From the IMG/VR virus record IMGVR_UViG_2524614847_000004, positions 1 to 64,000 of that record: 64,000 nucleotides of DNA; one strand, 5' to 3'. Shown here one piece after another: positions 3,473 through 58,000 of this stretch. This DNA is from a virus (Duplodnaviria > Caudoviricetes). The notes beneath the pieces were generated by a model that made no database searches, had not been told where the DNA came from, and was given only the letters and a program-made list of their open reading frames with translations. The position numbers were made by a program, and so were the translations under genes. The first letter of the stretch is position 1. The number at the start of each line of letters is the position of its first letter.

Positions 3473-3505
3473 TCAACCTTCCTTTCTTCTCATAAAAGAA
3501 TCATT

Positions 3506-6500
3506 TTATCTTGAAATCTCCAATAGTTTTTCAAATAAGCCCCTGTCTTTCTCAGACATAGAATTAAACTTTTCCAATAATGACAAAACTCTTTCTGCTC
3601 CATAAACATTGAAGCCATCTAATGATTTTTTAATAGAGGTTATAGCATCAGCGGTCTGATAAAGTACCTCTTTTACCTCTTTCGATTTGTTATAAGCCGC
3701 CTCTCGTTTTTCTTCACAGCTATCCCAAATTTGGTACAAAGCATTTGTCTCTTCGATCACTGCTTCCTTATATTTCTTGGCAATATCTTTAGAAAACAAT
3801 TTCAGTTTTAAGACATTTTCCTCTAAGGTTTCCATCATATAGTTTGGTTCTTTTGCCATGACTCAATCATTTTAGGAATATCATCGTTATGTATCTTACA
3901 AATATCGTTTACCAATTCTAATCTTCCAGCCAATTCATCGCTGATATCAATATACTTGTTGTTGTAACTTAAATACGCCATCTTATTTATCCTCCTATAA
4001 TTTAATCAAATGGACATTTAATAGAAATATTCAATCGTATACCATTCTTCATCTTCAGAATTATTTCTTACTAAAATCATATTGCTACAATAGTCTAATA
4101 TTTTATATTCCATACCCTCTGTTAAGCCAAATTCTTCTCCAAATCTTGTTGCTTTTACTGTATTATCTACGGAGTACTTATTCATTCGTTTTCCTCCGTT
4201 TCAATCAATTCTTTCCTCAATTCCTTAACTGCACCACACAATTTATTAATCTTCTCACCGATCTTCCGGTTGTAAATCTCCACGCATTCCTCATATGTCT
4301 CTGCAAAATCTCTTGAATATGTACTTACTCCATTTACTCTAGGAGTACCGTCCTGTTTCAAGACGTAGAAATATTTATTATGTATAATTCCCCTAATTGG
4401 TTCCTGCTTCGAATGTACTACCTTACCACCAAAATGAGATTGTCTATCTAAATCAATATTGAAAGCACATGCCCAGACAATATCTCCTTCTTTTAATTTG
4501 TTTTTATCAATCACTTTCAACTCCCATGTTCAATTTTCTATAAGCTTCTACTGAATTTGCTCCAATCCATAGCAATAATATTAACAGTAAAATTAAAATA
4601 CCAATCACTCTGAGTCCGATAACGATTGACGGTAGTAAATTTACTAGAAATACAATGGCTGCTATAAATGAAATCACCAGTCCAAATTCTAATGTAGTCA
4701 ATAAAATTCCAATCGCCGTTGCCAACAATCCTTTTAAAAATGTCTTAATATGTATCACCTCCACCTAATTTAATCTCAAAATATCTGAATGGTCGTTAGG
4801 ATCAATCGCTAATTCTCCTGATTTAATATAACGCAGCTCTCTATATTCATCGCCATCGATCAAATATAATCCAAATTCTTCCAGATAATCGTTAATAACC
4901 TCATTATCCTCATCTGGTAGTAAAATAGGTTTTACATTACAATGAATAAATTGATTCAAAAGATTATTATTATTTGTTCCAGATGGGACCATATATAGGC
5001 TTGCTTCAATATTCCATGCAGACTGAATTGCTTTTACAATCTCTGATTTCTTTAATGTAAAGAATCCTGAATCGCCCATGTTATTTTCATAGTAAAATCT
5101 CAAACTCGTTGTTCCTCCTTATAAAACAATAATTTAATAGTAACCAATCTCGTCTCCTAGCTTATCTTCATCTCCATCTTTATATTTTTTTACCTTTGAG
5201 CTTATACTATTTACCCTATTTATTTCATTTACTATCTCATTAATTTTATCTATTCTATTATTGATTCTATCTTGATTAATTTCTAACACACATTCCCTGT
5301 AAATCTTGCATTTCAAACCAATACAATATGAGTTGATTGATTCTGAACAATGCATACCAGGCCTTTTATCTGTAAAGCGGCAATAGCTCATTAATAGCGC
5401 CTCCTACTCAACAATTAATTTGTAATGATAACTGAAACTATATTTTGAACTAGAATGGTTTTCCTCTTCATTCTCCATAGGAAATTGCAAATCGGCCTTT
5501 CTGATAAAATCGGTTAGTTTCTTGCCGCCTTTTAACACTGATATAGAATGATTTCCATGATATGTACCGATACTCAATATACTCTCTTTGACTTCTTCGT
5601 CAGAATAACTCTCACAGACGAATACAAAACAATGTCCTTCCTGTACATCTTCCTTTTTCTGATAATAGCCTAAATTCTGTAGCGTTACTTTTCGCTTGCC
5701 AAGATACACATAACAATGTCCATTTGTACATTTATAAATTCCACCAACTTCAAGTTTGGATAATGGAATAGTATTCATAGAGTCTCGTTCCTGCCGTTTA
5801 TTTTCGATCTTCTGAAGAGAATATTCAATTTCTTTTTTTATAGCCAGTTCCTCTTCTTTGACTACAAGAAATACATCTCCCATAGAACGCTTATTACCAC
5901 CTTTAAAAGCAATTGATTTCCCTGACCAAACACCTATATCCATTCCTCTTACATTTCTGCCGGTTCCTTTTCCTACACAAACATCTCCATCATGGAGTTT
6001 TCTTCCTAAAATATCTTCCAAATACTATCTCCTTTTCTAAAAGATTAACTCCTCTAAAACATCAATGGCTTCCTCTGTTACGGTGTGATAGTTTCCATGT
6101 CGAGTTTTAATTGTATAAAAGAAGTGGTCATTAGAATTACTGTTAATTGAGACGATTTCTGCAATTCCATTTTCATCAACTTTTACAGATTCTTTACCAT
6201 CACATGATGCGGCGGATCTGATTTTTCCAAATCTAAAACCAGCTCCAACTTTGTACTTTGGCTCAATTCGTTCCCAGATTATGTATTTATCCCATGCTGA
6301 CAAATCGTTTGGCATACACATAACGTAATCTGCTGGCTGGTAGACTGTTACTATATCCCTACCTTCATGTCCGTAGGTTCCCTTAGCGTATTCTAGGTTT
6401 TCAATATAATTTCCATTTAACTCGCTGTATGTATCAATCGCTTTGTTGTTATAATCTCGAATCCATTTTATGACATCTGCATTGGGCGTATCTCTAAGAA

Positions 6501-10172: not shown

Positions 10173-13100
10173 CTACTTTATTATGTATTGTTCAATCCAT
10201 GTGTCATATGCACTTGTATTTTGAATAAATTCTTCGCCTACTTTTTCGTACTTAAATTTTTTTCTTACGTCTATCATCTGAATTACATCTCCAACGTCTA
10301 CAGGATTGTTAGTGAAATTCTTTTTAGAGATTTTACACACCTCAGTTTCTCCGCTTACAAGATAATATAATTTTACCTTTGGAGAATATTTAGTGTTTGT
10401 TTTTAAAACATACGCAAAATCAGTAAGTCTACTGTCAACATAATCTACAATACCTTGATATTCAAATTTGTTTTTAATTTTTGCTTTTAATGATAATCCT
10501 TTATCTTCGATTACACTGCATAACTCATTAAACAATCCAACGTTGTCTATATCTCTAAATTGTTTTGTAGTTTCTCTAGCATATTTCCTGATTATATTTT
10601 CATCTATAGGAAGCTTCGCTTTATTGAAAACTTTTGCGTTATATATGTCGTTGTACAATGTATAAATTTTTAACAACTTACCTGCTTTGCCATATTCTGA
10701 GAAGAAATCAAGTTTAATCATAGTTTCGAATTGTGATTTATCAACATCTGAACATGTGCCAAATAATTTAATAAGATCTACAAAAGTCTCGCATGACTGT
10801 ATTCCAATCTCCTGCAATCCATTGGATACATTTTCTCCAAATCCCTTCAGTGTATTAATTCCCAGATAAACGATCCCATTTTTACACGTTGTTTTGCCTT
10901 TTATAAGTTTCCAGTTATCAAACTTAAAAACAACACCAATTCTTTTTGCTTCATCTAACACTTCGGCAATCTTATTTGTATCTCCTTCATATGAGTTTAC
11001 ATATGCTGTAATAAATTCTGTAGGATAATGAACTTTTAAATACATTGTTATGTATGCAGTCAGTGCATAAGCTGCTGAATGTGATTTATTAAATGAATAT
11101 TTTGCAAACTCTAATATATCGTCCCACAAAGTATCTACTTGTTCTTTAGTCCACCCAAGATTCATTAAACCACTCTTCAACTCAGGCTCAATCTTTGCCA
11201 TTAACTTTGGCTTTTTCTTTGCAGTTGCTTGCCTAAGTTCATCGGGGTTTCTTAACCCAGCAAGTTTTCCGATTTCAATTAACTGCTCCTGATATACTAT
11301 AATTCCATATGTACCCTCTAATATTAGTATCAGATCGTCATGTAAATATGTAATTAGTTCTAACCCATTTTTTCTTGCTATGTAATTTGGTATATACGCC
11401 TTTGCTCCTGGTCTGTACAATGCATTGGCTGCCGATAAGTTATCAATACTATTACATTTCATATCTGAAAGCATTTGTCTCATTCCTTGTGACTCGAACT
11501 GGAATATTAGAAGCGAATTACCATTTCTGAACTCATTCCAGACTTCTTTATCGCAAAGGTTTATTTTATGTGGTGCTATGAATTCATAATCTTTGCCGAT
11601 CATTTCAAGCACATCATATATTACATCTAATGTACGTAGACCAAGAAGATCGATCTTTACAAGCCCCAAATCATCTGCTGTGTGCATATCTCCTTGTAAA
11701 ACCCAAACATCTTTATCTGGAACATACTCAAGTGCACTATAGTAATCTGCATTTTTCATACAAATTACTTTTCCACAAGGGTGCATTCCAAACGACTTCG
11801 GTAATCCAGACAATTTAGAAGCATATTCGAATAGTTCTGGATAGTCATCTTTATATGAATCAAGCACCCCATTTTCCAATGCTTCGTCAATTGTTTCGTT
11901 ATCAAGCAGTTTTGTCATTTCGTTTGTTATTTCAAATGGAATGCCGAGAACCTTACCAATATCTTTAATTGCGCCCTTTGCCCAAATATACTGGAATAAA
12001 CCAAGGCATACAACGTTTTCCCACCCATAAGTGTCTATAATGTGGTTCATTACCTTATCTCTATCTTTTGGGGAAAAGTCCGCATCTACATCAGGTATTT
12101 TTAATTCCTTTTTTGTAATTTGATTTGATTCAAGTAAATCTAATGCGCCAACGTCGATAAATCTTTCGAAATACAGTCCATATTTAATAGGATCAATGTC
12201 TACTATTCCACTTAAATATGCTAATAATGACCCACCAGAACTCCCCCTTGCTATTCCCCTTCTCTCCGCAGACGAAATATAGCTATGAACCAATAAGTAG
12301 TATCCCTCAAACCCCATTTTTAACACAGCATTTATTTCATATCTGGCTCTATCTTTATAAATCTTAACGATCTCTTCAACGGTATCAAAGTGTACAAATT
12401 CTCTTTTCGTTTCATTGCCATTTTCATCGTATATAATCTGAGCCATATATTGTTTCCACTGTTCTATGCTCCAATCAAAAAATCCTTTATTCTTGAAACC
12501 AGTATTACACAAGCTTTGCAAATATTGTTTTTCAGATTTATAAGACTTTGGAATATCGGTGTGTGGTATAATTGGAGCAGAAAGTGGATACTCAACATTG
12601 CATTTATCTGTGATTTCTTGTGTGTTCGCTATTGCAGTTAAATTATATTCGACTGTGCTTTGGCATTTTACTTTAACATCATCTTCAGACTGTATATAAC
12701 AATCATTATACATTTCTCCAACTTCTCTTGTTTGCCCGATTTTTACAAATATGCTGTGATATTTCTGGTCCTCTACAGTCAAATAATGAGAGTCACATGT
12801 TACAACATATTTAATATCAAGCATATTAGCTAGCGCCACTAATTTCTTATTAAGTTCTTGTTGCTCCAGTTCTTCGTGTGCTTGATACTCTATATAATAA
12901 TCATCACCAAATAAATCTTTATACTTTTTTGCAATATTCATTGCCACTTCTAGTTTCCCAGATGTAAGTGCTCTTGACACTTCTCCAGCCATACAAGCAC
13001 TCAAACATATTAATCCATCATGGTAATTTTGTAACATTTCAAAATCAATTCGTGGTCGCTTATTGAATTTATACTTAGTAGATTCCTTAACCAATTTTTG

Positions 13101-13391
13101 TAGATTTTGTCGTCCAGTCTCATTTTTAGCTAATAGAATCAGATGATACATAGTATTCTCTCTGCTCATAATAGTAACGTCTGAACATATATAACACTCA
13201 CAACCAATTATAGGTTTAACACCTTTTTCTTTGGCTTTTTTGTAAAACTCAACGGCACCATACATATTACCATGGTCTGTTATTGCAATAGACTTTTGTC
13301 CAAGTTCAAGAATACGGTCAAACAATTCGTCTATTTTTATATTAGCGTCCAATAAACTATATAATGTATGAACATGTAAATGTGTAAATAT
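10173..13391 (-). CDS. dnaE: DNA polymerase III alpha subunit (phage DnaE, YorL-like)
   Basis: PHP domain (HLHVHTLYSLLD, AITDHG), RGSSGGS, PDVDAD catalytic motif, YSFNKSHS; ATA start needed to include the PHP motif. Confidence 0.95.
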   Translation of the reverse strand: MFTHLHVHTLYSLLDANIKIDELFDRILELGQKSIAITDHGNMYGAVEFYKKAKEKGVKPIIGCECYICSDVTIMSRENTMYHLILLAKNETGRQNLQKLVKESTKYKFNKRPRIDFEMLQNYHDGLICLSACMAGEVSRALTSGKLEVAMNIAKKYKDLFGDDYYIEYQAHEELEQQELNKKLVALANMLDIKYVVTCDSHYLTVEDQKYHSIFVKIGQTREVGEMYNDCYIQSEDDVKVKCQSTVEYNLTAIANTQEITDKCNVEYPLSAPIIPHTDIPKSYKSEKQYLQSLCNTGFKNKGFFDWSIEQWKQYMAQIIYDENGNETKREFVHFDTVEEIVKIYKDRARYEINAVLKMGFEGYYLLVHSYISSAERRGIARGSSGGSLLAYLSGIVDIDPIKYGLYFERFIDVGALDLLESNQITKKELKIPDVDADFSPKDRDKVMNHIIDTYGWENVVCLGLFQYIWAKGAIKDIGKVLGIPFEITNEMTKLLDNETIDEALENGVLDSYKDDYPELFEYASKLSGLPKSFGMHPCGKVICMKNADYYSALEYVPDKDVWVLQGDMHTADDLGLVKIDLLGLRTLDVIYDVLEMIGKDYEFIAPHKINLCDKEVWNEFRNGNSLLIFQFESQGMRQMLSDMKCNSIDNLSAANALYRPGAKAYIPNYIARKNGLELITYLHDDLILILEGTYGIIVYQEQLIEIGKLAGLRNPDELRQATAKKKPKLMAKIEPELKSGLMNLGWTKEQVDTLWDDILEFAKYSFNKSHSAAYALTAYITMYLKVHYPTEFITAYVNSYEGDTNKIAEVLDEAKRIGVVFKFDNWKLIKGKTTCKNGIVYLGINTLKGFGENVSNGLQEIGIQSCETFVDLIKLFGTCSDVDKSQFETMIKLDFFSEYGKAGKLLKIYTLYNDIYNAKVFNKAKLPIDENIIRKYARETTKQFRDIDNVGLFNELCSVIEDKGLSLKAKIKNKFEYQGIVDYVDSRLTDFAYVLKTNTKYSPKVKLYYLVSGETEVCKISKKNFTNNPVDVGDVIQMIDVRKKFKYEKVGEEFIQNTSAYDTWIEQYIIK

Positions 13392-15011
13392 TTAACTCAC
13401 CACCCTTATCTCATCACATACCGCCTTTAGTACAAAGTTTCTACCAAAAAACCCAGAATCAAGATTACAGACTATTTCCAATTCGTCATTCATCATGCTT
13501 GATTCCTCCATATCATCAAATGAACCTGTAAAATTCCATTTAATAATATTCGTATAGCCATTTGGCTTAACAACCAGATGCTTGTAATCACTCATCTGTC
13601 CAATCTCATATTCATCAATACCATTTATAAATACTTTGACTGGTTTAAATCCTTCTCCTGATACTCTATCAATAGTTTTAATTCTGTCTACCAACTGCCT
13701 AGTTAAGTCGTCAATATTTATCCTAATATCAACATCTACTGAAAAGTCAGTTTTCAATTCTGGAAGATTTGTTTCTATGTAATCAATAAATTTGTTATAA
13801 TTAACTTTCTCAATCTCTATACCACTCGCCAATTCGTGGCCATCTGCCTTTGCTAAACCACTTTCATTACATATTTTTCTGAAGTCATCAACACCGATAG
13901 CTCGCATAGATCCAGCAAATGAACCGTCACAATCTTTTAAGACCAATATTGGGCGCTGATATTTTTCAAGTAATTTGTTTGCAATTAACCCACTAATTCC
14001 GTAAGGAGTGTCTATCAACGAAACAATCATTTTTCTATCAACCTGTGATTCGCATTGTTTCATTAAATCTGGCAATCGTAACTTCACTTCTTCGTTCTGT
14101 TGCTCTTTACATTTCTTTAATTCTTTAACATACTTCAAAACTTCTTTGTTATCGTCAGCCAAAAAAGCGTTCATAGCTGATTCATTCTGTCCCATTCTAT
14201 TTGCTGCGTTTATTAAAGGGGCTATACTAAATGAGACTGCTGTACTGTTAAACTCAAAACTACCAACAATTTTCTTAATTGCAGGATTATATATAGTTTC
14301 GAGTCCCTTTGTGACTATATATCTATTCTCCATAACAGTCATATCCATCATATCTGCGATAATTCCACATGCTGCTAAGTCAATCAAAGAATCGGCATGA
14401 TCAGTTATATATTGCTCATCAACATATTTGCAAAATTTCCATACGACACCTGCGCCAGACAATGCTTTATTCTCATAGCCTAGCTGTGATGATACAAGCG
14501 CTACATATTTTTCATATGGAACATCGTTTTTTACTGCATGATGGTCTAATACGACAACATGAATCCCCTTCTCGGTCAATCTTTTGTATTGCTTAATGTC
14601 ACTGTCTAGACTATCTACCACAATCAACAAATCAAGCCCATCAAATTTCTCTAAATCTTGTGATTTCAGTCCATGCCTTTTACCTTCATTGATAAATGTT
14701 TTAACATTTTCTTTTTTAGTAAAATTCCACAGATATCTAGTCATAATGGTTCCAGATGTAATTCCATCGCAGTCAGTGTCGAAGAAAACTCCAATCATAC
14801 CAGAATTACTCAGCGCAGTATCTAATTCGCTAAATGCTTTATCTATGTTTTTCAGTGAGTCTAGTGGTAGTAAATCATTTTCACTTGGATTCAGAAATCT
14901 ATCTGGTTCAACTATCCCTCTCGACCCCAGTACTGTTTCAAAAATCTCTTCTTCATACATTCCACGACAATCGTTCAAAATGTTATAATTCGTCGTCATC
15001 ATCACTTCCAA
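13392..15011 (-). CDS. recJ: RecJ-like DHH ssDNA exonuclease (YorK-like)
   Basis: DTDCDG, DHH, SGAGV, ADMM, GSMR, GHELASG motifs. Confidence 0.92.
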   Translation of the reverse strand: MEVMMTTNYNILNDCRGMYEEEIFETVLGSRGIVEPDRFLNPSENDLLPLDSLKNIDKAFSELDTALSNSGMIGVFFDTDCDGITSGTIMTRYLWNFTKKENVKTFINEGKRHGLKSQDLEKFDGLDLLIVVDSLDSDIKQYKRLTEKGIHVVVLDHHAVKNDVPYEKYVALVSSQLGYENKALSGAGVVWKFCKYVDEQYITDHADSLIDLAACGIIADMMDMTVMENRYIVTKGLETIYNPAIKKIVGSFEFNSTAVSFSIAPLINAANRMGQNESAMNAFLADDNKEVLKYVKELKKCKEQQNEEVKLRLPDLMKQCESQVDRKMIVSLIDTPYGISGLIANKLLEKYQRPILVLKDCDGSFAGSMRAIGVDDFRKICNESGLAKADGHELASGIEIEKVNYNKFIDYIETNLPELKTDFSVDVDIRINIDDLTRQLVDRIKTIDRVSGEGFKPVKVFINGIDEYEIGQMSDYKHLVVKPNGYTNIIKWNFTGSFDDMEESSMMNDELEIVCNLDSGFFGRNFVLKAVCDEIRVVS

Positions 15012-16008
15012 TCATTTTTATTTCACTATGTAATATTCTCAAAAGCTCATTTTTCCCTGAATCAGATGGAGAAATTTTATTCTTATAATTCTTATTGAAA
15101 TAGTCCCAATATCCAAAACTTATCTCCGAAAATCTTGAATACGACTTCGAAATGTTTATATTCCGCATTATACTTTCAAGTTCAAAGCCAACATCATGCA
15201 TGAATATCAGTGCCTTGGGGTTTAATTCATAAAGCATTTGTATTTGCTTTGGGTTAATTGATCCACTACCAATCGCCACACAGTTCCTGATGCCATATGA
15301 ATAACATTGCATAACACTTTTTTCACTTTCAAAAATTAACACAACATTATCTACGAGAAAATTATAGTTGTGTGAGTACCCGTACAACGTTTGCGAAATT
15401 TGACATGGAACCAAATAGTAATACTTCATTTCTCCATCTGGAACATCATAGTTGCACCTTACTTTTGCACCCATTATCTGTCCGAGTTGGTTATATATAG
15501 GAATTACAATTCCTTGTGATTCCACATCATACATGATATTAAAGAATCGCTGTGCTTCAAGTGATATATTGTCATTAAGAAATCGTAAATTCCCACACTT
15601 TATGTAGTGATTTAATATTGAATTTTCATATGTTCTAACCTTGTTTATATTACGTTTTCTTACTCTTTCATAAAAACCTCCGAAAATTCCCTTGCTATCA
15701 AAAAAATCGTAGTAATCTGTTATATTTAAAATATCTTTTATTACAGCCAAAACTTCTGAAAAGCCAACTCTTCTTTGCTCGCTTATATAACCAAACAAAT
15801 CTTTTTCTATGTTCCTTGCGAAATCATGAACATATAAATATTGATTATTTTCAAGTTTGATTACTATAGACTTTTTTGACGCATCAATTGCTCTACCAAA
15901 TTGTAAATACTTGGGTCTTACCACTACATTGCAATAACCAAAATGTTCAAGAACTTCTTTCAGTTTATCTGGGTGATTTAACAATTCTTTCTTAATGTCA
16001 TTTAGCAT
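14983..16008 (-). CDS. DNA primase-like TOPRIM protein (YorJ-like)
   Basis: IVIPIYN, LYG, FESEKSVMQ TOPRIM-like motif; lies between helicase and RecJ. Confidence 0.8.
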   Translation of the reverse strand: MLNDIKKELLNHPDKLKEVLEHFGYCNVVVRPKYLQFGRAIDASKKSIVIKLENNQYLYVHDFARNIEKDLFGYISEQRRVGFSEVLAVIKDILNITDYYDFFDSKGIFGGFYERVRKRNINKVRTYENSILNHYIKCGNLRFLNDNISLEAQRFFNIMYDVESQGIVIPIYNQLGQIMGAKVRCNYDVPDGEMKYYYLVPCQISQTLYGYSHNYNFLVDNVVLIFESEKSVMQCYSYGIRNCVAIGSGSINPKQIQMLYELNPKALIFMHDVGFELESIMRNINISKSYSRFSEISFGYWDYFNKNYKNKISPSDSGKNELLRILHSEIKMIGSDDDDEL

Positions 16009-16022
16009 ATATTATCACTCTA

Positions 16023-17573
16023 TTATCTTATTTCACCATGTTTCGGATGGCACTGTGCTACCTCTCTGAACAAACAGTGATCCCCGTCGAATTTTAATAA
16101 GTACGCGATGCCTGTATCTGAAGAATTCCTGCCATTTCTAGTTTTCTCAACAAATAGCATTCTCCACACCGCTGTTCTGTCCGGTTTATATTCTTCTTCA
16201 ATCCATTTGTCGTTCACCTTGATGATTTTAAATGGCTTGCAGTAATATTTACTTTTTTCATCTAACTCTTCGTCATATACATTTCGCATTAGAAATAAAC
16301 CCTCTAATATTTCTTTTATTTGTTTTGAATTAGATAAAACGGAACTATCAAGGAATAATTTGCCTTTCATATACTCGGCTAGCTGAACGGAAGCCAACAT
16401 AATAATGTTATATTTTTTACCCATCTTGTCTAAATCTCTACTGTCTTTAACCAGAGATAAATCTTGACGAGAACCATTGAAGTCTGATTCCTGAATTTTA
16501 AAGGTGTCATAAAGAACTGTATCATATCCATACCTTAATACATTTTCTCTGATTTTCTTCTTAACGATGCTCATGTCCGCATCATTGATAGACACAAATT
16601 TAACTTTACCTTTATATTTCTCTTTCCAAAAATTCTGTACTTTTTTTAACTCTTGGCGACTTGCTGTATCAATGTCTCCTGCTGTAAATTTACCTTTTGT
16701 TAATTTGAAGTACCGACTATATTTAGCTAACAACCAAACCATAAACTTAGTCTTAAACTTTTTAATTCGTTCTTCGTTTGATATAATCAATACTTTTCGG
16801 TCACGATACAATAAAGCCATAATAACAGTAATCCACCATGTGCTTTTACCTGATGACGAGAACCCTCCAAGCATGGTAAGAGTCCCCTCTAATAATCCCA
16901 TCGTTTGTCTGGATAGAAATTGAAAACAATTTATCTCATTCCCATTTATGTCATATCCAGCAATATCAAATGGTATCCCATTTTCAAGACCTTCCTTACA
17001 ACTCTCTATAAACTCATCATCAAAATCTATCTCTTCTTCTTCAATTATTTTGCTTGAATACCCAGTTCCATATGATGCGATTCTAGCTTCATACCAATCT
17101 GTTACTTCTTCAGCACTCATTTTACGGAACAATTTTAGTGGGACAATACTTTTACCATTTACATCAATTTCTTTTAGTAAATTAAAACCGTCATCATGCA
17201 TATTAATTAAAGTATTTTCTCGATACAGAATATCTATATACGTATCAAAATTCTGAAGATTAATAATGTCAATTTGATGTTGTATCGTATCCCAACCACC
17301 AATAGAGTCATATCTTTCAATAACATCTTCCGACATATTGGAGAGAATCGTTACTTCATCTAATGAATAAAACCCCTTTGCTCTTAATTGCTTTAGTAAT
17401 GAGAAGTAAAATAATCCATCACTTGATATAAAATCATTCTGTTCAAATGTAGTTTCATCAAGCAATAACATATCTTTGAAGAAACAACTTACCACATTGC
17501 CCTCTGTAGAAATTCTATCTTTTAATAGTTGTGGTGGATATTTTTCTTTCACGCCAGTGATAAATTCTGCTAT
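16023..17573 (-). CDS. DnaB-like replicative helicase (YorI-like), probable ATA start
   Basis: Walker A GFSSSGKS, SNEE, YDTFK, ASVQL, EKTRNG; ATA at 17573 follows an AGGTGA RBS. Confidence 0.88.
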   Translation of the reverse strand: MAEFITGVKEKYPPQLLKDRISTEGNVVSCFFKDMLLLDETTFEQNDFISSDGLFYFSLLKQLRAKGFYSLDEVTILSNMSEDVIERYDSIGGWDTIQHQIDIINLQNFDTYIDILYRENTLINMHDDGFNLLKEIDVNGKSIVPLKLFRKMSAEEVTDWYEARIASYGTGYSSKIIEEEEIDFDDEFIESCKEGLENGIPFDIAGYDINGNEINCFQFLSRQTMGLLEGTLTMLGGFSSSGKSTWWITVIMALLYRDRKVLIISNEERIKKFKTKFMVWLLAKYSRYFKLTKGKFTAGDIDTASRQELKKVQNFWKEKYKGKVKFVSINDADMSIVKKKIRENVLRYGYDTVLYDTFKIQESDFNGSRQDLSLVKDSRDLDKMGKKYNIIMLASVQLAEYMKGKLFLDSSVLSNSKQIKEILEGLFLMRNVYDEELDEKSKYYCKPFKIIKVNDKWIEEEYKPDRTAVWRMLFVEKTRNGRNSSDTGIAYLLKFDGDHCLFREVAQCHPKHGEIR

Positions 17574-18055
17574 AACTCTTCACCTACTTCCTGCTCAATT
17601 TCAAGTAATGATTTACGCTTCTTTCTTTGGGTATATTTCACTGTTGGCATATCTATTTCGATCCTTTTTTCTGGCTGCTTACTTTCAATTTTAAAATCTG
17701 CTAAACTGTTTTTAAGGATAGTTGAAAAATATCTAATTTGAGCATATTCACTTTTGAAATCTTTGTTTAAAACATTGGAGAGATATTTTTCATTTTCACA
17801 CAAATACTGGTATGTTTTTTCATACCCATATACACTTTCAAGTTCTGAAATCTCCTTAAACAGAGTAGTATTAGTTACTTTTCTCCCAAAAATATTAAAT
17901 ATTTCTTCATATGTATCATCTTTAATTTTAATCTTTTCAAGTTTTCCTAAATATTCTTCCTGATTACAGTAATACTCATTTACATTTTTATTTCTAACCT
18001 TGTATGCAGTATCTCTATCAATTTTATTTCCACAAATACGACATTTAACTAACAT
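17570..18055 (-). CDS. replication-module protein (YorH-like, possible helicase loader)
   Basis: N-terminal CRIC...YYC zinc motif; syntenic position. Confidence 0.6.
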   Translation of the reverse strand: MLVKCRICGNKIDRDTAYKVRNKNVNEYYCNQEEYLGKLEKIKIKDDTYEEIFNIFGRKVTNTTLFKEISELESVYGYEKTYQYLCENEKYLSNVLNKDFKSEYAQIRYFSTILKNSLADFKIESKQPEKRIEIDMPTVKYTQRKKRKSLLEIEQEVGEEL

Positions 18056-18105
18056 GTGATTACCCCTTTTTTATAGAAGAGGAGAGGGAAAACCCTCTCA
18101 TTCAC

Positions 18106-19296: not shown

Positions 19297-19324
19297 AACA
19301 TGGTTATATTATTTGTTCTAAATA

Positions 19325-47682: not shown

Positions 47683-49604
47683 ATTACATCACTGGATTCT
47701 TCTGAGCAGGTTGCCAGCTTTCTTCTCCATACAGTTTTGCATGTCTCTTCACATATTCATCAAAAAATTCCTGATCGGTACATGGGGCCAAGTCGAAATG
47801 AATTTTTTCTCTTATATCATCATCCATCATTGTCACTGCTACATCAAAATCAATTTCTACTCCGTACTGATTAATAACGTCCCTCATAATTTACCTCCCA
47901 ATTTTTATCATTACTATTATTATACTGCCCATATGATATATTTTCAATTTCTATCTACACATTTCAAGAAAATCATTAGTACTCATGGCGCCCTCCCACC
48001 AACAAGCAACCGCTGGCCTATCTTCTGAACTATTTAAATAGTCCTCTAGCTGTTTTCTAAAGTAGTTAAGCATATCACCATCAAATGCAGCCTTCAGTTT
48101 ATCAAAGTCCTTGCACTGTTCTAATTCTCCATACCCCATAGAAACACCTCCTTATTAAATCTACCGCTAACTATGTGCGGTTAGTGACCTAAGCCAGATC
48201 AACCACTAATTCTCCGTGATAAGCAGCAATCACTTTCAGACTGCCGGGAATGCCTTGTTTACCTTTGACAGTAACGGCCTATCCTTCCGGATCACCGACA
48301 AGGCTATGTATTAAGATATAATGCAATGCAAGGCGAAAATTTCCGTGAAATTATCAAATGTAGATATGTATACACCATTTGCATACATTTCAATTTTCCC
48401 TTCCCTGTTCTTCATGTAATGAAATTTTATATTGTCATTCATGTTTTAATCCTCCGGTCTGTGTAAATAAAGCTGCGCTTACAATTATCAATAAAGCTGT
48501 TAATGTCCAGTTTCCGTCCTGGTCTGGTAGCATAAAGAGTACAAAAAAAGAAAGCAATAATAAAATGCTTCCTACGATTCGGTTCCATATTATGAAATTT
48601 CGTCTTTGTTTTCGCCTTTCAATGCGTCGATAGCTATATGAGCAGCTATAATCTTTTGTTGTATCGCTTACCAAATTCATTATAATTTCCTCCCCTTTTA
48701 TGTTCTCCTCTGCAAGTCAAACGAGAAATAACATACCCTATTAACGCTCCTATAGAAACACTTCCTATTAAAAAATAAAACGATTCCATACGTCCTCCTT
48801 AACTATAAAATGTGCTTTTCATTCTGGCATTGCATATAATATTTCATCTCTTACCATATAATAGCGGAAATTCGCCATCTCTTCTGTGAGTTCACCGTTT
48901 TCGACCATTTCATCACATTCTTTTTGTAATTCTTCACATGCCTTTTTATATCTTTCTCCAAAATCGCTCATATTTACACCTCCGTTGAAACCTGTCTTTT
49001 ATTTTACTTTTTCAACAATAGCTTTTTTCCCTTCAATTTTTACTACATATTCTCCATGTTCATAAAACGAAACAGTTAATGGAAATTGAAAATCATTATA
49101 TCCTCCGCTAAAAGAACAAGAAGCAAATCTAAAGTTTCCCTTTCCCCCTCCCATTACTATATCTTCAGTTACTACTCTTACTTTTTTTTCTTTAACCACA
49201 ATCGTTGCCTCCTTCTTATTTCAATTAATAAAATCTATTTTTTATTCTGATATTTCATACCATTGAATTTCTGATCTGTTGTTCATTTTGTCAAATATAT
49301 CAGTTACATTGTTTTTCAATAAATTATACTGGTGTTCCATCTCTACCAAATTTGCTTGATAATATGCTTCTAGTCTTGTCTGGAATATACCTTCATAGTT
49401 GTACGGCCTCAATTGCGAAATTGTTTCTTCCGCCGTATGGTTGTTCAACCAATAATCAGATATGACAGCTTTTGATAAAAAATATTTACCTCCAAATTTA
49501 TTAGTCATTGCTTCATCTAATTCATAAATTGCAAAATTAAACACCTCTTCAATTAATCTCATATTGTCTTTCTCCTTTTTATGTTTTCTGCATCAAATTA
49601 CAAT

Positions 49605-50848: not shown

Positions 50849-52534
50849 AATGCTACCTCCTTATTTTTTTATACATGAAAATTACATTTGATTCATTCCA
50901 CAAACCTTTAAATTCAATACCTGTAAAGACTCCACATATTCATCAATACTATTCTGTGAAGCCGTGTCAGTTACAAGCTCCTTTGCCTTCGCAGCATTCA
51001 CGATAAGGCTTATTAAACCATTACTGATAATTTCCAGTTCTTTATTTGAAAACTTATCCATTACAATCTCCTTCCTGATTTTGAGCAAAATAAAAGCAAC
51101 CGGTTATATTCCGATAGCTCACATCAAACGTGCATTTTATTAGTTACTTATGTCACACCAATATCCATCAAATATAGCAGTTGCGGAATAAAATTTACCT
51201 TTTGTAAGTTGTATTTTTATACCTCTACTTTCCATAACTCTATATAATTTATCCAATGAAGACTTTTCTTTAACATTTACAAATATTCTGTCTTTCAAAA
51301 CGCCATTATGAATTAATGTGATACTTGGCGCTTCTTTTTCTAATTCTTCAATAACTTCAATCATATTAATATCCATAAATCATTCCTCCTTAATCTACAA
51401 TTGAAAGACATCATTCATCGTACACTTAACGGTATACAGAAGTGATCACAACGCATATTGCCTACTTTGTGTTGTTTATCTTCGTCATAATAAACCATAG
51501 CATATTCATCGCCATCGTAATCTATATATTTTGATGTTTCATCCAACCAATAATAACTTCCGACTTCAAGTTGTCCGGGCATTGCTTCTCTTTCTGAAAT
51601 ACATCTTACTGTTTTCATATTCTCTCCATTCCGTACCAAAGAAAGGTACATTTTATCTGTTATTAGTTAAATGTTGAAACCTCAAACTCTTCTTTAGCTA
51701 ATACAAAAGTGAACGTTACTTCTCCGTCGGAATTTTGAAGACTTACGGTTGAATCATTTTCTTCAATTATCAGACAAGTTTCACCGTCCATACACACAAG
51801 TTCGCCCGTGACCTTATCTCTCAAATCATAATAATGATTGCCGTTTTCTTCTTGATAAGTATGATCTATATAGTTGTGTGTTAAAACTTCTCCATACTTC
51901 TCAAATAATGATTTTATACTGATACATTTTTCTTTCAATTTGTTTTCCTCCATTTATACGTTAAAATTGCGTTTTCAACTGAAATTCGCCCTTTATTCAC
52001 ATGTTATATAATAGAAACCAGTACATTCATTGACTTCCCCGTTTCTTTCATCATCTACGGGGTCAAAGTAACCAGTTGTAGCAACGTCTGTCACTCCTAT
52101 ACTTTCTAAAAAATCTGCTATTACATTTGCAATGGTTTCTGTTTCGCACATGATATCATCTCCATTTGTCCATATCCCAGGATTATCATCACATGGTTTA
52201 GGCTCCTTGGGTAAGCTTTCTAATATCTGCTCATATGTGATCATTGTTTCTTCCTCCATTCTTCTAATGAAACTTACTTTTCATCTGCCTAATTACCATG
52301 TAACACGATCAGGAATGAATATCAATTCAGTGTCTTCATATTTTTTCATATACTTCATGTTTGTATCTGGTTCGCCATCAAATGAATTATTTACACTTGT
52401 ACACAAATCAGGCTCTCTATTCTTTCATGGGTCAACATCTTTCCATAATGTTCCATGTTCATCTTCATATACCGGTCTATCCCAACTATCCATGCCTCTA
52501 TAGATCAATTTAACTTTCATAGTTTTACCTCCTG

Positions 52535-55015
52535 CTACGCTGTTTTTATATTTTCTTGTTCACTCTTTTCAATTACTATAATCTTACTTGCTACTCCTGT
52601 CATTTCAAACGTACCACTTTTTAAATCTTCTGTGAAATATGTTTCATTTTCTAACCATTGTCTAAACTCAATTGATTTTTTATCATTGGCAAAAGTCCAA
52701 TGTGGTGAAGAAATAGAAACAAGCGTACCACCATCTTTTAATAAATCATAAGCGTGTTTAATATGATTCTGTTCATCACTAAAAGGCGGGTTCATGATAA
52801 TGGCATCATAAATAGGTTCGCTCTGATACTGTAGAAAATCATCACCGACAAGATTATAGTCTTTAAGTAAAAGCAATTCTCGAAAAGTTGACATCTGCTC
52901 CACAACATCAATATCATTTGTAATTTTTCGCATTTCATCAGCGATGGCAGCAATTCCGGCAGAAGGCTCAAGCACTTTAGCCCCCTCTGTAATTCTTGCT
53001 AATTCAACAAGTCTTTGTGCAACCTCTGAAGGTGTGAAATTAATATCCCCTTTCTGCATCATCTTACATTCACGTTCAAGTCGTTTTATTTTCAGTGCTG
53101 TTTGATCTTGTGGTTTATTTACCATTTCAATAATTACTTTGTATTCCTCAATGGTTTTAACTAATTCTTGTGTATTTGAGATATTAGCCTTTTGAAGACG
53201 TTTCTGCGTTTTGGGTACTTCTTCATTCCACCACGAATTGGGATAATTCGGGTCTTTTTCTGGATATTCTACCGGTCTAGCAGAGGAAGGACGTTTTCCC
53301 TCTGGTAAATTCCACGTTTCAAACCGTTTATAGTAACTATGAATTGAATCACGGAATGATTCTGTTAATAGAGCAGCTTCAAGCGAAGTTAGTTCACGTT
53401 TCTGTGCTGTATCAAGAAGACAAGAAAGTATATTTAAGTCTAGCCTATAACCTTCTATTTTCGCCTCACGCCCCTCTTGTTCCCTCATACGCTTATAGGT
53501 ATTTGTTTTATAATCCCCCGACAATTTATCAATTTTGCTTTGTGTACTGCTAATTGCTTTGTTAATACGTTCTATAATTTTTGTTCTATCCTGCTGTTTT
53601 GGCCGTGCCGTTTGGTTATCCTGTGTGGATTCCTCTGTTGTTGTATCATTTCCTCTGTTTAACACTTCTGTAGGATCATATCTAAATATAAATCCATGCT
53701 TAAATTTAGAGTAGTAGGCATCGATTTTTTTCATTTCGACACGTAAAGCAGAAAAGTCTTCCACTTTTTCTCTAACTTTTACAACCCACATTTTAGAATC
53801 GTCTCTTGTGTCGGTGTCTTCTGCGATATCATAGGTATAGGCAGCTGAAACAGATACTTTCTGTTTATCTGCTTCTGAGGTAGTAGTTTCGGATTCTTTT
53901 CCCTTTGTCTCCGCTTTGCTATTTCCGATGGACTTTTTAACCACCTTTTCCACTTCATATGGTGTTTTTACTTCCTTAAGTTCACACCATGAAATAGCTC
54001 CCGTTTCAATCCACTTTAAGAACCTCTCTCCAAAGGTCCCCCATCTGTTGTTACTTGAGGCAATTCCGGTACACTCTTTTGTAAGTTTTCCATTGAGTTT
54101 ATAAGCATAAAAATAAGATCCGTTTTCCGTTTTGCTTTCATGAATGCGGTAAACAAGACCTTTATAACAATTGTGGTTATATCTAGTTTTAAGGATAAAA
54201 CACTGACCCTCTTTAATTTCTCCTGCCTCCACTTCTACGGCCTTTGTTTCGTTCTTATATTCTGTAACGATAACTTTCTCATAAATAGTACCGTCACCTT
54301 CTCCAAGAAGTCCACCGCAAGTGGTATCTATTTTATTGATAAACTTGTCAAAATCTGATTTTAATTTTAAAGTTTCTTCCTGTTCTTCCATCTGGTATTT
54401 GACTGATTTTTCTAATTCCACATCATTAAACCAACTACAACCGCTATTTGTTCTTCTTATCTGTTCTCTAATTTCATCCTCTGTTCTTTTCTTGTAGTTC
54501 TCCTTATAATAGATACCAGAATATTTTAAAATTCCGTTGCCTTTTGCAATGATGATTCCGTCTTTTTCTATGTGCCAGTTGCATTTATTGGGGTGGGCCT
54601 GATGCCCTGGGACCATTCCGACAACGACGTATTTCTCTTTGTTTTCTGTTGCTGCCTCTGCTTTCTTCTGCAATCGCTCAATCATCATTTTGGCGCTTTC
54701 CGCTTCTGATTCAGATGCTCCACGCTCTACGGTCATTGCTTCCAGCTTCTTAATTTTGTCTGTAATGCTTCTATCATAAGAAAAATCTGTATGATTATAT
54801 TTTCTAATTTCTTGCGGCTCCCTTGCTCCGCAAACGTCAACACAAAGAACATATCCGTTCTTTTCTGCAACACCGTCCCAAGTGGCAGGGCAATAATAAT
54901 CCGTCATGCTGTCGGACTCGTCTGGTGAATAGCCATATACTTTCCAACCATCAAGAGCCATTAACCTATGGGCTATCATCACTTTAACTTCCCTATAATC
55001 ATAATAATTTGACAT
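52535..55015 (-). CDS. large multidomain protein with C-terminal N6-adenine methyltransferase-like domain
   Basis: FTP, VLEPSAG (motif I), MNPPF (motif IV); DUF2786-like segment IKKLEAM..RGASESEAESA. Confidence 0.8.
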   Translation of the reverse strand: MSNYYDYREVKVMIAHRLMALDGWKVYGYSPDESDSMTDYYCPATWDGVAEKNGYVLCVDVCGAREPQEIRKYNHTDFSYDRSITDKIKKLEAMTVERGASESEAESAKMMIERLQKKAEAATENKEKYVVVGMVPGHQAHPNKCNWHIEKDGIIIAKGNGILKYSGIYYKENYKKRTEDEIREQIRRTNSGCSWFNDVELEKSVKYQMEEQEETLKLKSDFDKFINKIDTTCGGLLGEGDGTIYEKVIVTEYKNETKAVEVEAGEIKEGQCFILKTRYNHNCYKGLVYRIHESKTENGSYFYAYKLNGKLTKECTGIASSNNRWGTFGERFLKWIETGAISWCELKEVKTPYEVEKVVKKSIGNSKAETKGKESETTTSEADKQKVSVSAAYTYDIAEDTDTRDDSKMWVVKVREKVEDFSALRVEMKKIDAYYSKFKHGFIFRYDPTEVLNRGNDTTTEESTQDNQTARPKQQDRTKIIERINKAISSTQSKIDKLSGDYKTNTYKRMREQEGREAKIEGYRLDLNILSCLLDTAQKRELTSLEAALLTESFRDSIHSYYKRFETWNLPEGKRPSSARPVEYPEKDPNYPNSWWNEEVPKTQKRLQKANISNTQELVKTIEEYKVIIEMVNKPQDQTALKIKRLERECKMMQKGDINFTPSEVAQRLVELARITEGAKVLEPSAGIAAIADEMRKITNDIDVVEQMSTFRELLLLKDYNLVGDDFLQYQSEPIYDAIIMNPPFSDEQNHIKHAYDLLKDGGTLVSISSPHWTFANDKKSIEFRQWLENETYFTEDLKSGTFEMTGVASKIIVIEKSEQENIKTA

Positions 55016-55027
55016 TGTAATTACCTC

Positions 55028-58000
55028 CTAGTACCCATAATATAATTCAATTATTTTTTCCTTTTTTAGTTGTTCTATTTCTATATCATTTATATCTATA
55101 TTAGAGTATGACTGTTTTAAAGTTTCTTTGGCTTCAATTTCAACATCCGCAAATATAATGCCCACAACTATTTCTCCACAGTTTCTAAAGTAATATTTAT
55201 ACATACAATAACCTCCATTGTTTTTCATTTATTCCCACTATAAAAGCCACCGGAACATTGCCCAATGGCTTCAAACTGAAAATAAATATACTACATTGTT
55301 TCTCTTTGCTCTTCCGTATTAATTGCTAATGCTTCGTAATAATCTTCCTTGCAAATTTCATCACTTGTATTTGTTGGAGATATCCACTTGTCACAGCTTT
55401 TAAAATATTCGGAATATTGACAAAAATATTTTTCTGAGGTTTTAAAATACTCCCATCTTCTCCCGTTTTTCTTATCATATAAGAAAAAACTATTTTTATG
55501 TGTATGATAACCCATTTTATTACCCCCTTAAAAGTACTATTTATTTATCATAATTATTGATCCAGTCTTCCGCTGCTTCTACTGTATCAAATTCCATATC
55601 AGAGTCAGAAGGACTGCACATATAGGCATATTCCATATTATCAGGGTGTAAAACTGTTATGTTGAATCTATATTCTTCTAATTCCTTATTATTGTTCTGG
55701 TAAATTCCCCAACCTTTAAGCTTCTTAACTCTCTTCATTCTGTTTTACCTCTCAACCAAAGAATAGTTTTATTGTATTACGGTTCTTGAATCTCATTAGT
55801 AAAATTCTCTAACAGTATCTCCAATCGTAATATCTTAGCTTCTGTTTTTTTAAGTTTTTTTAAGGCAGTTTGAAAAGAAATGTCTGTTTGACATTCTGAT
55901 AAATCAATTATTATTTTTATCAAATCTTCTTTTCTGTCCTTTTCTGCTTCAATATCATCTGTTATTAGATTATAAATGTCTACATATAAATCCTTTGTCA
56001 TTTTGATTTACCCCCACTCATAAAATAAGAATTTCAAAGCAATCCCTTTTCAATCGCTTGTTCTGGCCTTCCTCCCTCAATATATGGAAGCAAGTGTCTT
56101 TTATCTTTACGATAGTTTCCTGCACCATCATATATAAGTGCGGATTGTTCGCTTGAAAGTTTCATAGCCTTGTTGTGGTATTTCGTACAATAAGGCTCTG
56201 TATTATTGCAAGCAGTAGTTAAACGCTGATATTTACGTATTTCAATTTCAAGTTCAATAATTCGTTTATCCTCTTCTGAAAGTTTCATGTATTTTCCCTC
56301 CATTTCTCAATGCTGCGGACTTGTGACCGCTTGACTTGTGTCAAGTGCATTAAAGCAGCCCTTATAGGCTGCTCCACTCTGCTTATACTACTTCAAGGTA
56401 TAAATCTTCAATATCGTAGTTTACTAACTCGTCTTTAAAATCTTTTCGCCAAGTGTTACAATTTTTCTCAAACCTTTTTTTATTGCAATCCCAAATTGAT
56501 GTAATAATGTCACCATTTTTATGCCTTATTTGTGCTTGATACTTATTATTTTTCACTGCCTTTCCCTCCATGAAATTCGGTTTTTATTTACCACACCTTT
56601 TCATATTTAACGGAACATACACGGTCAATTAAGTCATCAATTTTTATCTGTATTGGCTTTTCCAATTCTTTTAATTCTTCATAAGATATATCACAAATAT
56701 CATAAAGTGCATCTCGTTTATCCTGTAAAGCTCTTAATTCAGATTCTAGTTCTTGTAATATCTTTGAATTTTTATTGTTTAAAGTTCTTTCTCTGTAATG
56801 ATCTCTTCTTGTATAACCGATACTTCCATATAAGGACATCTTAATTTCTCCTATCAAATAATTGTTTCATTTAATAAATGTTTTAAAAATAAGAATTTCT
56901 ATCTTTTACTAATTCTTGTATTATTTCTTTCATTTCGCTGATATTATCAGCAACTCTTGACCTTGAAAATCCGTCTTTCCACTTCATTACAATACAAATA
57001 TGTTTATCTTCCCTATACAAATCACTAATAAGATGTTGATATTTTTTAGGAACATAATTGATTAAATTTTTCATTATATCACTCCCTTAATAAATTTGAA
57101 TATTCTATTTCACTTCTATAAAATGTTTAGTTATGCCTCTACCACTTCTAAAATATATTTTCCGTTATCGGCTTTATGCACATTAAATTTCTTAACACAC
57201 TGAAACTTTAATGGAATTTCTGAAACTGAAAAGGAATATAAGAACGACATATTATCATTGTAAAATTCCACTGTTTCAATTTCTTCTCCGTACATAAGCA
57301 TATCAATCAATTTTTCTAAGTTAATCTTATTTGTTTTCATCTTCAGTCCTCCCAATGAAATGGATATTCTATGCCACTTCTATATCATTGATGTACGTCA
57401 ACGTATTTGTTCTCCAGTGACCAGCTTCTATATACTCTGCCTGAATGTTTTCCGCGTAGCCGTACATATTCAAATTATGCACCGATATTCTTAAGCCTGA
57501 TAATTCCATAATGCAATACTTTGTTTTGCCTGTATCCTTGTTTAATACTTTGTAAGGGATAAAGTCCAGATAGACAAAGTACTTTTTCCCTTCCGTACTT
57601 GACATAGCATCACATACCGCAAAGCCGTCTATAATTCCGGTTTGTTTCATTGCCTGATCGTGAATTGATTCCACGATATCCGTCGGAATTTTGCTTTTAA
57701 GTAATGAAAAATCGTATAAATACTTTTTATTGTTGGTAAATTCCTTCTTGTTTTCCTTCAGATCTGGAAATGACTTTTTCATTTTCGCCATGCTCGGCAG
57801 ACAGTTCAATGTATTGTATTTGTTCATTTTAAAATCTCCCTTTCAAAAGTTTAAAATCGTACCGCCTAGATGAATTTTCTGTACTCCGGTATGTCCTGTT
57901 TCTACATTCTCAAAAACTAAAGTTTCCGATTCGATTTTAATATTTGGTGACATGATGTTTAATATCTCTCTGCACCTTTTTGCTGATAATGTAGGCATGT

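Follow-up and report, generated by a model that had tools for sequence, protein, structure and literature searches.

Short repeated elements at gene junctions have been described in several phages and mobile elements, and we compared with them a palindrome that recurs between genes in a 64,000-nucleotide stretch of viral DNA (the window), the first 64 kb of IMG/VR record IMGVR_UViG_2524614847_000004 (135,533 bases, one contig, classed as a provirus). The PeSLs (promoter-early stem-loops) of T4-type phages are, like the window's palindromes, repeated intergenic elements in hyperplastic regions where small non-essential genes abound; they serve as points of exchange between unrelated genes and delimit the modules that are shuffled (Arbiol et al. 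2010, PMC2839356; Comeau et al. 2014, PMC4122927). Unlike the palindrome, a PeSL is a composite of a sigma70-type promoter and a terminator stem-loop, and the copies, being similar to each other, undergo homologous recombination, also with their neighbours, which yields mini-circles (same sources). The sites studied here are A/T-tract palindromes of 16-32 bp without promoter or terminator, each with its own spacer and with 12 bases shared by positional orthologues; the PeSL-type combination of promoter and terminator stem-loop is absent from them, and the core is too short to hold both.

Integron attC sites are structured, gene-linked sequences of 57-141 bp with conserved outer boxes, which IntI recombines with attI in the form of a folded single strand. 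An attC site, like the palindrome, lies at the 3´ boundary of a promoterless gene unit and often contains the stop codon; the sites here, in contrast, are short and linked to position, with no counterpart of attI or IntI. A stop codon coinciding with the start of the site was found at 37 of 125 scored junctions, whereas neither an IntI signature nor the length and boxes of attC were found.

Mycobacteriophage stoperators are found in short gaps between genes, where they overlap start and stop codons. They resemble the present element in being tens of short protein-binding sites across a temperate phage genome (PMC9283540), yet a stoperator is a 13-bp site without symmetry, has the same sequence throughout, follows the direction of transcription and binds its repressor as a monomer, whereas the window's sites are palindromes with position-specific spacers. 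The chromosomal dif sites consist of inverted arms around a 6-base centre (PMC2965235, PMC5357621), as does the palindrome, whose layout in SPbeta and allied Bacillus phages (the SPbeta group) is 13-6-13. The arms of difSL, the XerS target, end in GAAAA and start with TTTTC (PMC5357621), inner ends in an A-tract and a T-tract as seen here, and the window encodes a full-length XerS-like recombinase. Sites of dif type are single-copy chromosomal sites for dimer resolution, unlike the dozens of copies with differing centres in each phage genome here, and the arms in the window and its near relatives (the window group) differ from theirs in measuring 6-7 bp. Two inverted arms around a 6-8 bp centre, the layout of Xer/Cre-type core sites, are present in both groups (the SPbeta group has arms of 13 bp, the window group arms of 6-7 bp), and a recombinase with a complete catalytic set is encoded nearby as a candidate cognate enzyme.

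SPBRE, the operator of MrpR (YopR) in SPbeta, is a repeated cis-element of the same phage family whose binder has a tyrosine-recombinase fold (PMC10516654). Unlike the palindrome, it is a motif of ~21 bases that overlaps the promoters of ten genes and does not sit on stop codons, and the window's recombinase homologues differ from MrpR in keeping their catalytic residues and show no sequence similarity to YopR/MrpR. We saw the motif, ending in or beside the -10, upstream of yonP, yonT, yonX (two copies), aimR, yopM, yopV, yorE, yorZ and yosX, and no clear copy in the short yorM upstream stretch inspected. The strict palindrome occurs in two of the seven MrpR-bound upstream regions within SPbeta 58-100 kb (yorE and aimR). 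The palindrome was rejected as an SPBRE/MrpR operator: the motif of the ten MrpR-bound upstream regions is different, and the window's recombinases are unlike YopR and YopP.

The upstream arm of a junction palindrome doubles as a stop codon

On the coding (minus) strand the element is a palindrome of 16-18 bp, (A)T[A/G/c]AAA-N6-TTT[T/C/g]A(T). Its strict form, TNAAA-N6-TTTNA, occurs 37 times in the window, a count never reached by shuffled sequences (11.6 +/- 3.6), and across the record 32 copies, mostly intergenic, have the N6 spacing, compared with 3-4 at most other spacings (12 at N7, 11 at N11). Positions -1 and 16 are A or T only, extending the palindrome to 18 bp, and are complementary in 27 of the 32 sites; half of the sites (16 of 32) have T at position 5. 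Positions 1 and 14, which vary, in contrast form a standard pair no more often than expected (16/32 against 16.4), and this lack of covariation argues for recognition of double-stranded DNA by a symmetric protein rather than for an RNA hairpin. Because the spacing is also fixed, we conclude from the sequence pattern that the palindrome probably works at the DNA level. Each genome carries ~35-40 copies, restricted to long arrays of small early and accessory genes on one strand and almost missing from the structural cluster. The next ribosome-binding site lies 2-35 bases downstream, and several sites end just 2-8 bases before a start codon.

For comparison we used the nearest relatives found, five IMG/VR contigs (three proviruses and two linear fragments) and a contig of an Acetobacterium wieringae metagenome-assembled genome (MAG); a nucleotide search of phage records with segments of the window returned no close relatives. 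G000 denotes the record that holds the window, G001-G004 related genomes and L150 a further related sequence. Alignable stretches of window and relatives are about 66-97% identical, mostly 75-90%, and the early regions of the relatives are strongly mosaic. Genes were called by a crude longest-ORF (open reading frame) routine (at least 40 aa, purine-rich strand), to which stops are robust and starts are not. The relatives are kin to one another, so that pair counts are not counts of independent events, and family counts are given where possible.

An earlier note on the window, made from its letters, placed the stops of at least ten genes in a fixed register within the palindrome, with all three stop codons in use, and all ten coordinates that it listed hold. 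Each of these stops is followed by AA-N6/7-TTTNA, which makes the stop bases 1-3 of a 16-mer, T-R-R-A-A-N6-T-T-T-N-A, on the minus strand. TAA opens the palindromes at 3493-3508 (stop at 3506, gene 3506-3859; spacer also in G001, G002 and G004, with homology to the G004 counterpart in the downstream flank only), 25292-25307 (stop at 25305, gene 25305-25931; spacer also in G002 and G004, with a GC-rich hairpin and T run after the site), 40651-40666 (stop at 40664, gene 40664-40924; spacer in G002 and G003 between unrelated flanks), 48986-49001 (stop at 48999, gene 48999-49199) and 49229-49244 (stop at 49242, gene 49242-49562). TGA opens the site at 56021-56036 (stop at 56034, gene 56034-56303) and TAG that at 57356-57371 (stop at 57369, gene 57369-57827). 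The recombinase gene that the note had called XerC-like also ends this way, with TAG at 41392 in the palindrome 41379-41394, and reads as XerS-like. At the two remaining stops, TGA at 51415 (site 51402-51417, gene 51415-51651) and TAA at 51993 (site 51980-51995, gene 51993-52259), the upstream arm is degenerate and the site falls below the matrix threshold; the latter adjoins a better site at 51962-51977, so that two sites, one strong and one degenerate and stop-bearing, stand side by side in one 39-base gap (51962-51995). All of these sites are on the minus strand.

The note had cautioned that the half-site itself contains TAA or TGA. This is correct and turns out to be part of the explanation. 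In the test proposed by the note we conditioned on the stop and scored only the far, stop-free half-site, TTTNA. It occurs at +11 from the stop in 19 of 219 genes of the record, whereas other offsets from 3 to 44 give 0-7 genes (~2.5 at other offsets); a peak confined to +11 in the half that holds no stop is not expected of an artefact of stop-rich gene ends. In the window, 13 of 123 genes have the match: the ten above, those ending at 48819 and 57843, and one at 55541 that is probably a chance hit. The ORF 48819-48971, absent from the earlier list, ends with TGA in the palindrome 48806-48821 (minus strand), whose spacer recurs in G001, G002, G004 and L150 with stops TGA, TAG and TAA. The gene 57843-58091 likewise ends with TGA at the start of 57830-57845 (minus strand), where the spacer is at the same time the ribosome-binding sequence of the next gene; here (GGGAGA) and at record position 133999 (GGAAGA) the start codon follows 2-5 bases past the site.

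The same +11 peak was found in five relatives (13, 7, 4, 5 and 3 genes against means of 2.3, 2.5, 1.5, 0.75 and 0.22) and was absent from a sixth, more distant fragment (0/31 genes). Pooled over six genomes, 58 of 839 genes have TTTNA at +11, against ~13.5 expected from offsets 14-40, and the three stops are about equally enriched (33/486 TAA, 11/161 TGA, 14/192 TAG). Among 125 matrix-scored sites lying within -12 to +40 of a called gene end, 37 begin exactly on the stop, and the next most frequent offsets have 9 (-5) and 8 (+10). With 34 unrelated families of upstream genes and 28 different spacers among them, these 37 junctions are largely independent events. At the other sites either 3-20 bases separate the site from the stop, or the gene terminates within the site but in a different frame (offsets -1, -5, -7 and -8), as at 4006-4021 on the minus strand, where the stop TAA is bases 2-4 of the site (offset -1), and at 5122-5137, which is of the same kind. 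The stop register is thus a strong mode and not absolute, with about two thirds of junction sites at other offsets. It follows from the upstream arm itself, which reads T-[A/G]-A-A-A, so that a gene whose frame enters it in that register ends on the first three bases of the element: the upstream arm of the element doubles as the stop codon of the upstream gene.

Position-specific spacers keep their order while neighbouring genes change

Each junction has its own 6-base spacer, and the same spacers recur in the same order in relatives. Among 211 scored sites of six genomes, 111 pairs have identical spacers against 13.9 expected from column shuffles, with no excess of pairs that differ by one mismatch (216 against 199). 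Restricting the count to pairs between genomes gives 106 identical spacers against 9.9 expected, and 178 one-mismatch pairs against 160. In 86 of these 106 pairs neither 80-base flank is alignable (flanks were called homologous at a local-alignment score of at least 14 or 16 within 80 bases, and genes by BLASTP at E <= 1e-3). At gene level, both neighbour genes were callable and unrelated in 49 of the 111 pairs and at least one neighbour was homologous in 12; in the remaining 50 at least one neighbour gene was not called and none was found homologous.

The pairs fall into 39 junction families, whose order is colinear between the record and G002 (Kendall tau -0.89, n=20), the record and G004 (-0.86, n=13) and G002 and G004 (1.0, n=15), weaker for G003 and not significant for G001 (-0.33, n=7). 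The Acetobacterium MAG contig also has three of these site cores, with their order preserved. The distances between consecutive same-spacer sites differ among genomes, and the intervening genes have therefore been replaced rather than merely diverged. Identity specific to positional orthologues is limited to bases 2-13 (AAA-N6-TTT), with positions 1 and 14 identical in 0.47 and 0.50; outside -1 to 16 it drops most of the way to the level of unrelated sites, and an excess of up to ~0.2 persists (for example at positions 17 and 21). When pairs with homologous upstream genes were inspected, homology ran through base 13, in the far arm, and ended there in 4 of 11, and same-spacer pairs with one homologous flank were divided evenly in the window group (7 upstream only, 7 downstream only). 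The survey found no adjoining sites that share a spacer, as they would if circular cassettes had been inserted.

Several sites off the stop register belong to such families, all on the minus strand. The palindrome at 51124-51139, 3 bases past a stop, and that at 52268-52283, just upstream of the gene 51993-52259, each have a core common to G002, G003, G004 and L150. The core at 39625-39640, 10 bases past a stop, is found in five genomes, and at 56571-56586, 4 bases past a stop, a MAFFT alignment with G002 and G003 showed an invariant 12-base core between unrelated flanks.

Since spacer-specific cores keep their order while the flanking genes are replaced, the palindrome is very probably, as far as comparison of sequences can tell, a genuine DNA-level element of SPbeta-like phages and the conserved boundary of exchangeable single-gene slots. 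The statement of the earlier note that the site is integral to the cassette end thus stands as far as the boundary of exchangeable units goes (same spacer, same order, unrelated genes; homology ending inside the far arm; and, in the SPbeta group, an arm reaching ~9 bases into the gene), and its likeness to integron cassettes does not, given sites of 16-32 bp without attC boxes, spacers that follow position, adjoining sites with no shared spacer and a recombinase of Xer-like type.

Some spacers also recur within the record. The sites at 27452, 28853 and 29113 share spacers with 124509, 125574 and 125789, in the same order and each between unrelated genes, and the fourth and fifth such pairs are 44482/131336 and 32403/51901. 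A scan of a viral collection with one site core (14 specified bases) matched more than 114 mostly unrelated contigs, the chance level for that length, and was uninformative.

The same element in Bacillus phages of the SPbeta group

Both the element and its stop register were also found in the Bacillus phages SPbeta, phi3T, SPbetaL4 and SPbetaL5. In SPbeta (58-134 kb) the N6 spacing yields 40 copies and most other spacings 10-20; the 38 copies at N7 are in large part N6 sites that continue TTTTAA and thus also match N7. The full site lies exactly on the stop in 10 SPbeta genes, with every other offset represented at most once; by coordinates these are yoqG, yoqS, yoqY, yorT, mtbP, yorZ, yosC, yosF, yosR and one unannotated ORF. 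There are 4 such sites in phi3T, 2 in SPbetaL5 and 8 in SPbetaL4. Identical-spacer pairs among the four phages number 68 against 3.5 expected, with both flanks homologous in 24, the downstream flank only in 16, the upstream flank only in 5 and neither in 23.

In this group the arms extend to outer TCT...AGA blocks, which makes a 13-6-13 palindrome of ~32 bp; the 28-base extended pattern has 8 matches in SPbeta 58-100 kb against 0.26 expected. The upstream arm reaches ~9 bases further into the upstream gene, so that the element supplies the last codons of that gene as well as its stop; the arm also contains another T-R-A, in a different frame. As a separate observation, a gene annotated Gad1 lies in the variable early-gene array of SPbetaL5 (108355-109242) and SPbetaL4 (107491-108378), and in SPbetaL4 a palindrome of the shared-spacer kind (~109245) lies ~0.9 kb downstream of the Gad1 gene, three annotated genes on.

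A tyrosine recombinase as the possible user of the site

The window encodes two tyrosine-recombinase homologues on the minus strand. The first (41392-42474, 360 aa) is Xer/XerS-like, matches Pfam Phage_integrase at 6.6e-36 and has all six catalytic residues as read from its translation; its best solved relatives are XerA and XerD, and its best NCBIfam model is XerS, with an end-to-end alignment at 198 bits. The second, short homologue (37236-38210, 324 aa) has R, K, HxxR, H and Y all present by eye. The record holds four genes of the Phage_integrase family, the catalytic set having been read by eye in the two window proteins. The other two lie outside the window: a YomM-like homologue on the plus strand (91231-92547 of the record), inside the structural cluster like SPbeta yomM and preceded by an HTH_3 gene (90969-91253), and a further homologue on the minus strand (122323-122868 of the record). 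SPbeta integrates by means of a serine recombinase, and none was found in the record. In SPbeta, YopP is described as having an XerC-type integrase domain only (PMC8612738), and yopP is reported to be conserved and active in the lysogen in one of three transcriptome sets (the microarray set, not the two RNA-seq sets; bioRxiv 10.1101/2021.11.22.469490). The extracts of the SPbeta literature examined assign no function to YopP or YomM, the latter appearing as a record annotation only.

As a single mechanism, the leading possibility, to which we give a probability of roughly 0.4, is that the palindrome may be the core site of a phage-encoded tyrosine recombinase, here with a XerS-like candidate. 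We favour it because a 6-base centre stands between inverted arms, because the arms of the Bacillus phages measure 13 bp and because the spacer is better kept than positions 1 and 14. The inverted arms would be occupied by a dimer of the recombinase, with strands exchanged where the 6-base spacer meets the arms. This exchange would need identical spacers, and so only same-spacer junctions of two co-resident related phages or prophages would recombine, while the ~35-40 mostly different spacers of one genome would stay largely inert toward each other. Genes would in this way be exchanged slot by slot, with reading frames and gene order unbroken, and the element would supply the stop, and in the Bacillus phages the last two codons, of whichever gene fills the slot. 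The candidate enzymes would be the XerS-like protein, the gene for which itself ends within a site, and the YomM-like recombinase, which SPbeta has as well. The wider proposal, that SPbeta-like phages have a natural system of slot-by-slot cassette exchange, with sites akin to mutually incompatible lox variants and served by an orphan Xer-type recombinase (XerS-like here, YopP or YomM in SPbeta), is tentative and rather doubtful.

A number of observations weigh against a recombinase site. Of 109 end points of homology blocks between the window and its relatives that lie near a junction, 23 (21%) fell at site junctions, while 33 of 122 junctions (27%) bear a site, and of the 59 junctions with a breakpoint 17 bear one; without enrichment of breakpoints at site junctions, exchange at gene boundaries does not need the site. 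Conserved islands lacking the palindrome occur too: exact matches of at least 18 bases with unrelated flanks were non-palindromic in 70 cases and palindromic in 23, in a census dominated by chance 14-17-mers and weakly informative at 18 bases and above. For a tyrosine recombinase the conserved arms of the window group, at 6-7 bp, are short, and this group lacks the outer TCT/AGA blocks (4 matches against 2.8 expected). The score of the 360-aa protein falls below the XerS model cut-off of 267 bits, its similarity to SPbeta YopP is not real (E = 0.022), and no XerS-like gene was found in the 103 kb of G001 examined, although sites are present there. Within G000 there are five identical-spacer pairs where ~1.3 were estimated by chance, and identical spacers are thus not avoided in one genome. 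Finally, shared cores with swapped flanks would fit recombinant joints at the site, but homologous or microhomology recombination at a site kept for some other reason would give the same pattern, which is equally expected on that account.

Other explanations of the element

The main rival reading, that the palindromes are operators, roadblocks or architectural sites, at which a dimeric phage protein binds and silences or organises the long early arrays, is quite possible, though we judge it less probable than not. Operators of 434 type, ACAA-N6-TTGT, have a comparable layout, and the candidate binders would be an Xre-type repressor, a stoperator-like repressor and the conserved HU-like YonN homologue. 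On this account the overlap with stops would arise only from the T-R-A in the arm combined with a compact genome, and the cores would be islands under selection, with ordinary recombination, homologous or illegitimate, exchanging the genes beside them as at linkers of the PeSL type. The fixed spacing without covariation agrees with it, as do the limitation of the ~35-40 copies per genome to same-strand small-gene arrays with nearly none in the structural cluster, the position of the sites 2-35 bases upstream of the next ribosome-binding site, and breakpoints no commoner at junctions with a site than at those without. Both phage groups retain the same arms, and the HU-like protein shares 51% identity with YonN of SPbeta; mycobacteriophage stoperators are repressor sites present in large numbers across a genome, where they end transcription elongation (PMC9283540). 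Yet the spacer, usually the least constrained part of an operator, is the best conserved part here, with 106 identical pairs, nearly no one-mismatch excess and ~50% identity at positions 1 and 14, in relatives whose alignable DNA is about 66-97% identical, mostly 75-90%. The 13-6-13 anatomy of the SPbeta group is also more typical of recombinase sites, and the ten MrpR pull-down peaks reported all fall at SPBRE promoters (PMC10516654), with a sequence different from that of the palindrome. A ParB/KorB-like silencer was rejected, no ParB_N match being present in the record; SPbeta YopQ carries a ParB-type domain (PMC8612738).

It is unlikely that the upstream arm, TAAAAT in about half of the sites, is a -10-like hexamer from which each small gene is transcribed, even though position 5 is T in 16 of 32 sites and a scan put a -10-like TAAAAT on the sites at 51640, 51901 and 57830. 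Promoter-like matches are not enriched at 39-58.5 kb (112 against 94 +/- 9), the -35 region would fall in the swapped, unrelated upstream gene, several sites end just 2-8 bases ahead of a start codon, and the palindromic symmetry with its conserved far arm would go unexplained.

Still less probable is a site acting in RNA, as a weak hairpin, a processing or termination signal or a means of translational coupling between cistrons. The site does separate a stop from the ribosome-binding site that follows on the same transcript strand, and its outermost pair is complementary in 27 of 32 cases, but the inner variable pair does not covary (16/32 against 16.4) and an all-A-U stem with frequent mismatches would, in our judgement, be unstable. 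Conserved, position-specific loops would not be expected either, and the outer TCT/AGA symmetry in SPbeta points to double-stranded recognition. Terminator-like matches are not enriched at 39-58.5 kb (10 against 6.7 +/- 3.1).

An integron-type system, in which attC-like sites would travel with the upstream gene as cassettes moved by an integron integrase, is largely refuted and has a very small probability. Stops within the site were one reason to consider it; the other was that upstream homologues with a different downstream neighbour had the 3´ site in 28 of 44 cases, compared with 8 of 41 in the reverse arrangement (pairs counted in both directions, with spacers that often differ). These counts hinted that the site follows the upstream gene, whereas the same-spacer analysis gave no directional link. 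The sites, at 16-32 bp, are without the length or boxes of attC, spacer identity tracks genome position and not the gene, no adjoining sites share a spacer, and the genes stand in a long co-directional phage array with their own ribosome-binding sites. Integron-integrase models score the 360-aa recombinase far below their cut-offs (72 bits against 265 and 43 against 435). That A/T-rich gene ends might give TAA-AA...TTT unaided, in a genome of 33% G+C with TAA as the commonest stop (486/839), can practically be dismissed, as copies concentrate at one spacing, the half-site without a stop has its sole peak at +11, no shuffle attains the count observed and the pattern occurs in two distant phage groups.

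Source record and neighbouring genes

Gene content marks the record as a distant SPbeta-like prophage, a reading that rests on homologues of YonO and other hallmark proteins and on a replication module in the order of SPbeta yorG-yorL. SPbeta relatives were found for 11 of 220 called proteins, the shared set including homologues of YonO, HU-like YonN (51% identity), YomM (34%), YonJ, YorJ, YorK, YorL, LigB and YolE. The YonO homologue (914 aa, 66473-69217 of the record, plus strand, outside the window) is 43% identical over 888 aa to SPbeta YonO, which we take to be a single-subunit RNA polymerase, and its gene heads the plus-strand structural cluster. The record has a G+C content of 33% and a strong strand bias, almost all genes at 1-62 kb being on the minus strand. 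Genes identified in the window encode an NAD-dependent ligase, the two tyrosine-recombinase homologues and the proteins of the replication module (10173-20530, minus strand), namely AAA_24 (Sak4-like), a DnaB-like helicase, a DHH/RecJ-like protein and a Pol III alpha-like polymerase.

Nine of ten site-ending genes tested have no significant Pfam match (the recombinase gene was left out of this set and the 57843 gene put in). An 826-aa protein at 52535-55015 (minus strand) is also without a Pfam match; its residues ~590-823 resemble phage N6-adenine DNA methylases at 37-41% identity, and its N-terminal two thirds are without explanation. Accessory genes on the minus strand include those for an Amidoligase_2-domain protein (33647-34840) and a small methyltransferase (32474-33247), both more than 93% identical in DNA to G002. 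Downstream of the site at 51124, a small conserved hairpin (AACCGGTT core and T run, 51089-51115) is also present in G003 and G004; this island common to relatives, which is not of the palindrome type, may be a terminator.

Implications for phage mosaicism

The mosaicism of phages is usually explained by illegitimate joins that are rare and pass through selection, or by homologous exchange within conserved genes. In the phages studied here, single-gene slots are bounded by a short recognisable element, which keeps a position-specific spacer when the genes beside it change and provides the upstream gene with its stop codon. No description of such an element was found in a literature search that included extracts of an SPbeta review and did not cover the 1999 SPbeta genome paper. 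Because SPbeta and phi3T are genetically tractable in Bacillus subtilis, the question of "linkers" in modular phage evolution becomes directly testable, and the recombinase homologues YopP and YomM may acquire a role. The sites are also anchors for aligning hypervariable regions of accessory genes, such as the Gad1 region of SPbetaL4 and SPbetaL5, and could locate exchangeable slots for phage engineering. Should they prove to be operators or architectural sites instead, they would amount to a layer of control across the genome of a model temperate phage that had so far gone unnoticed.

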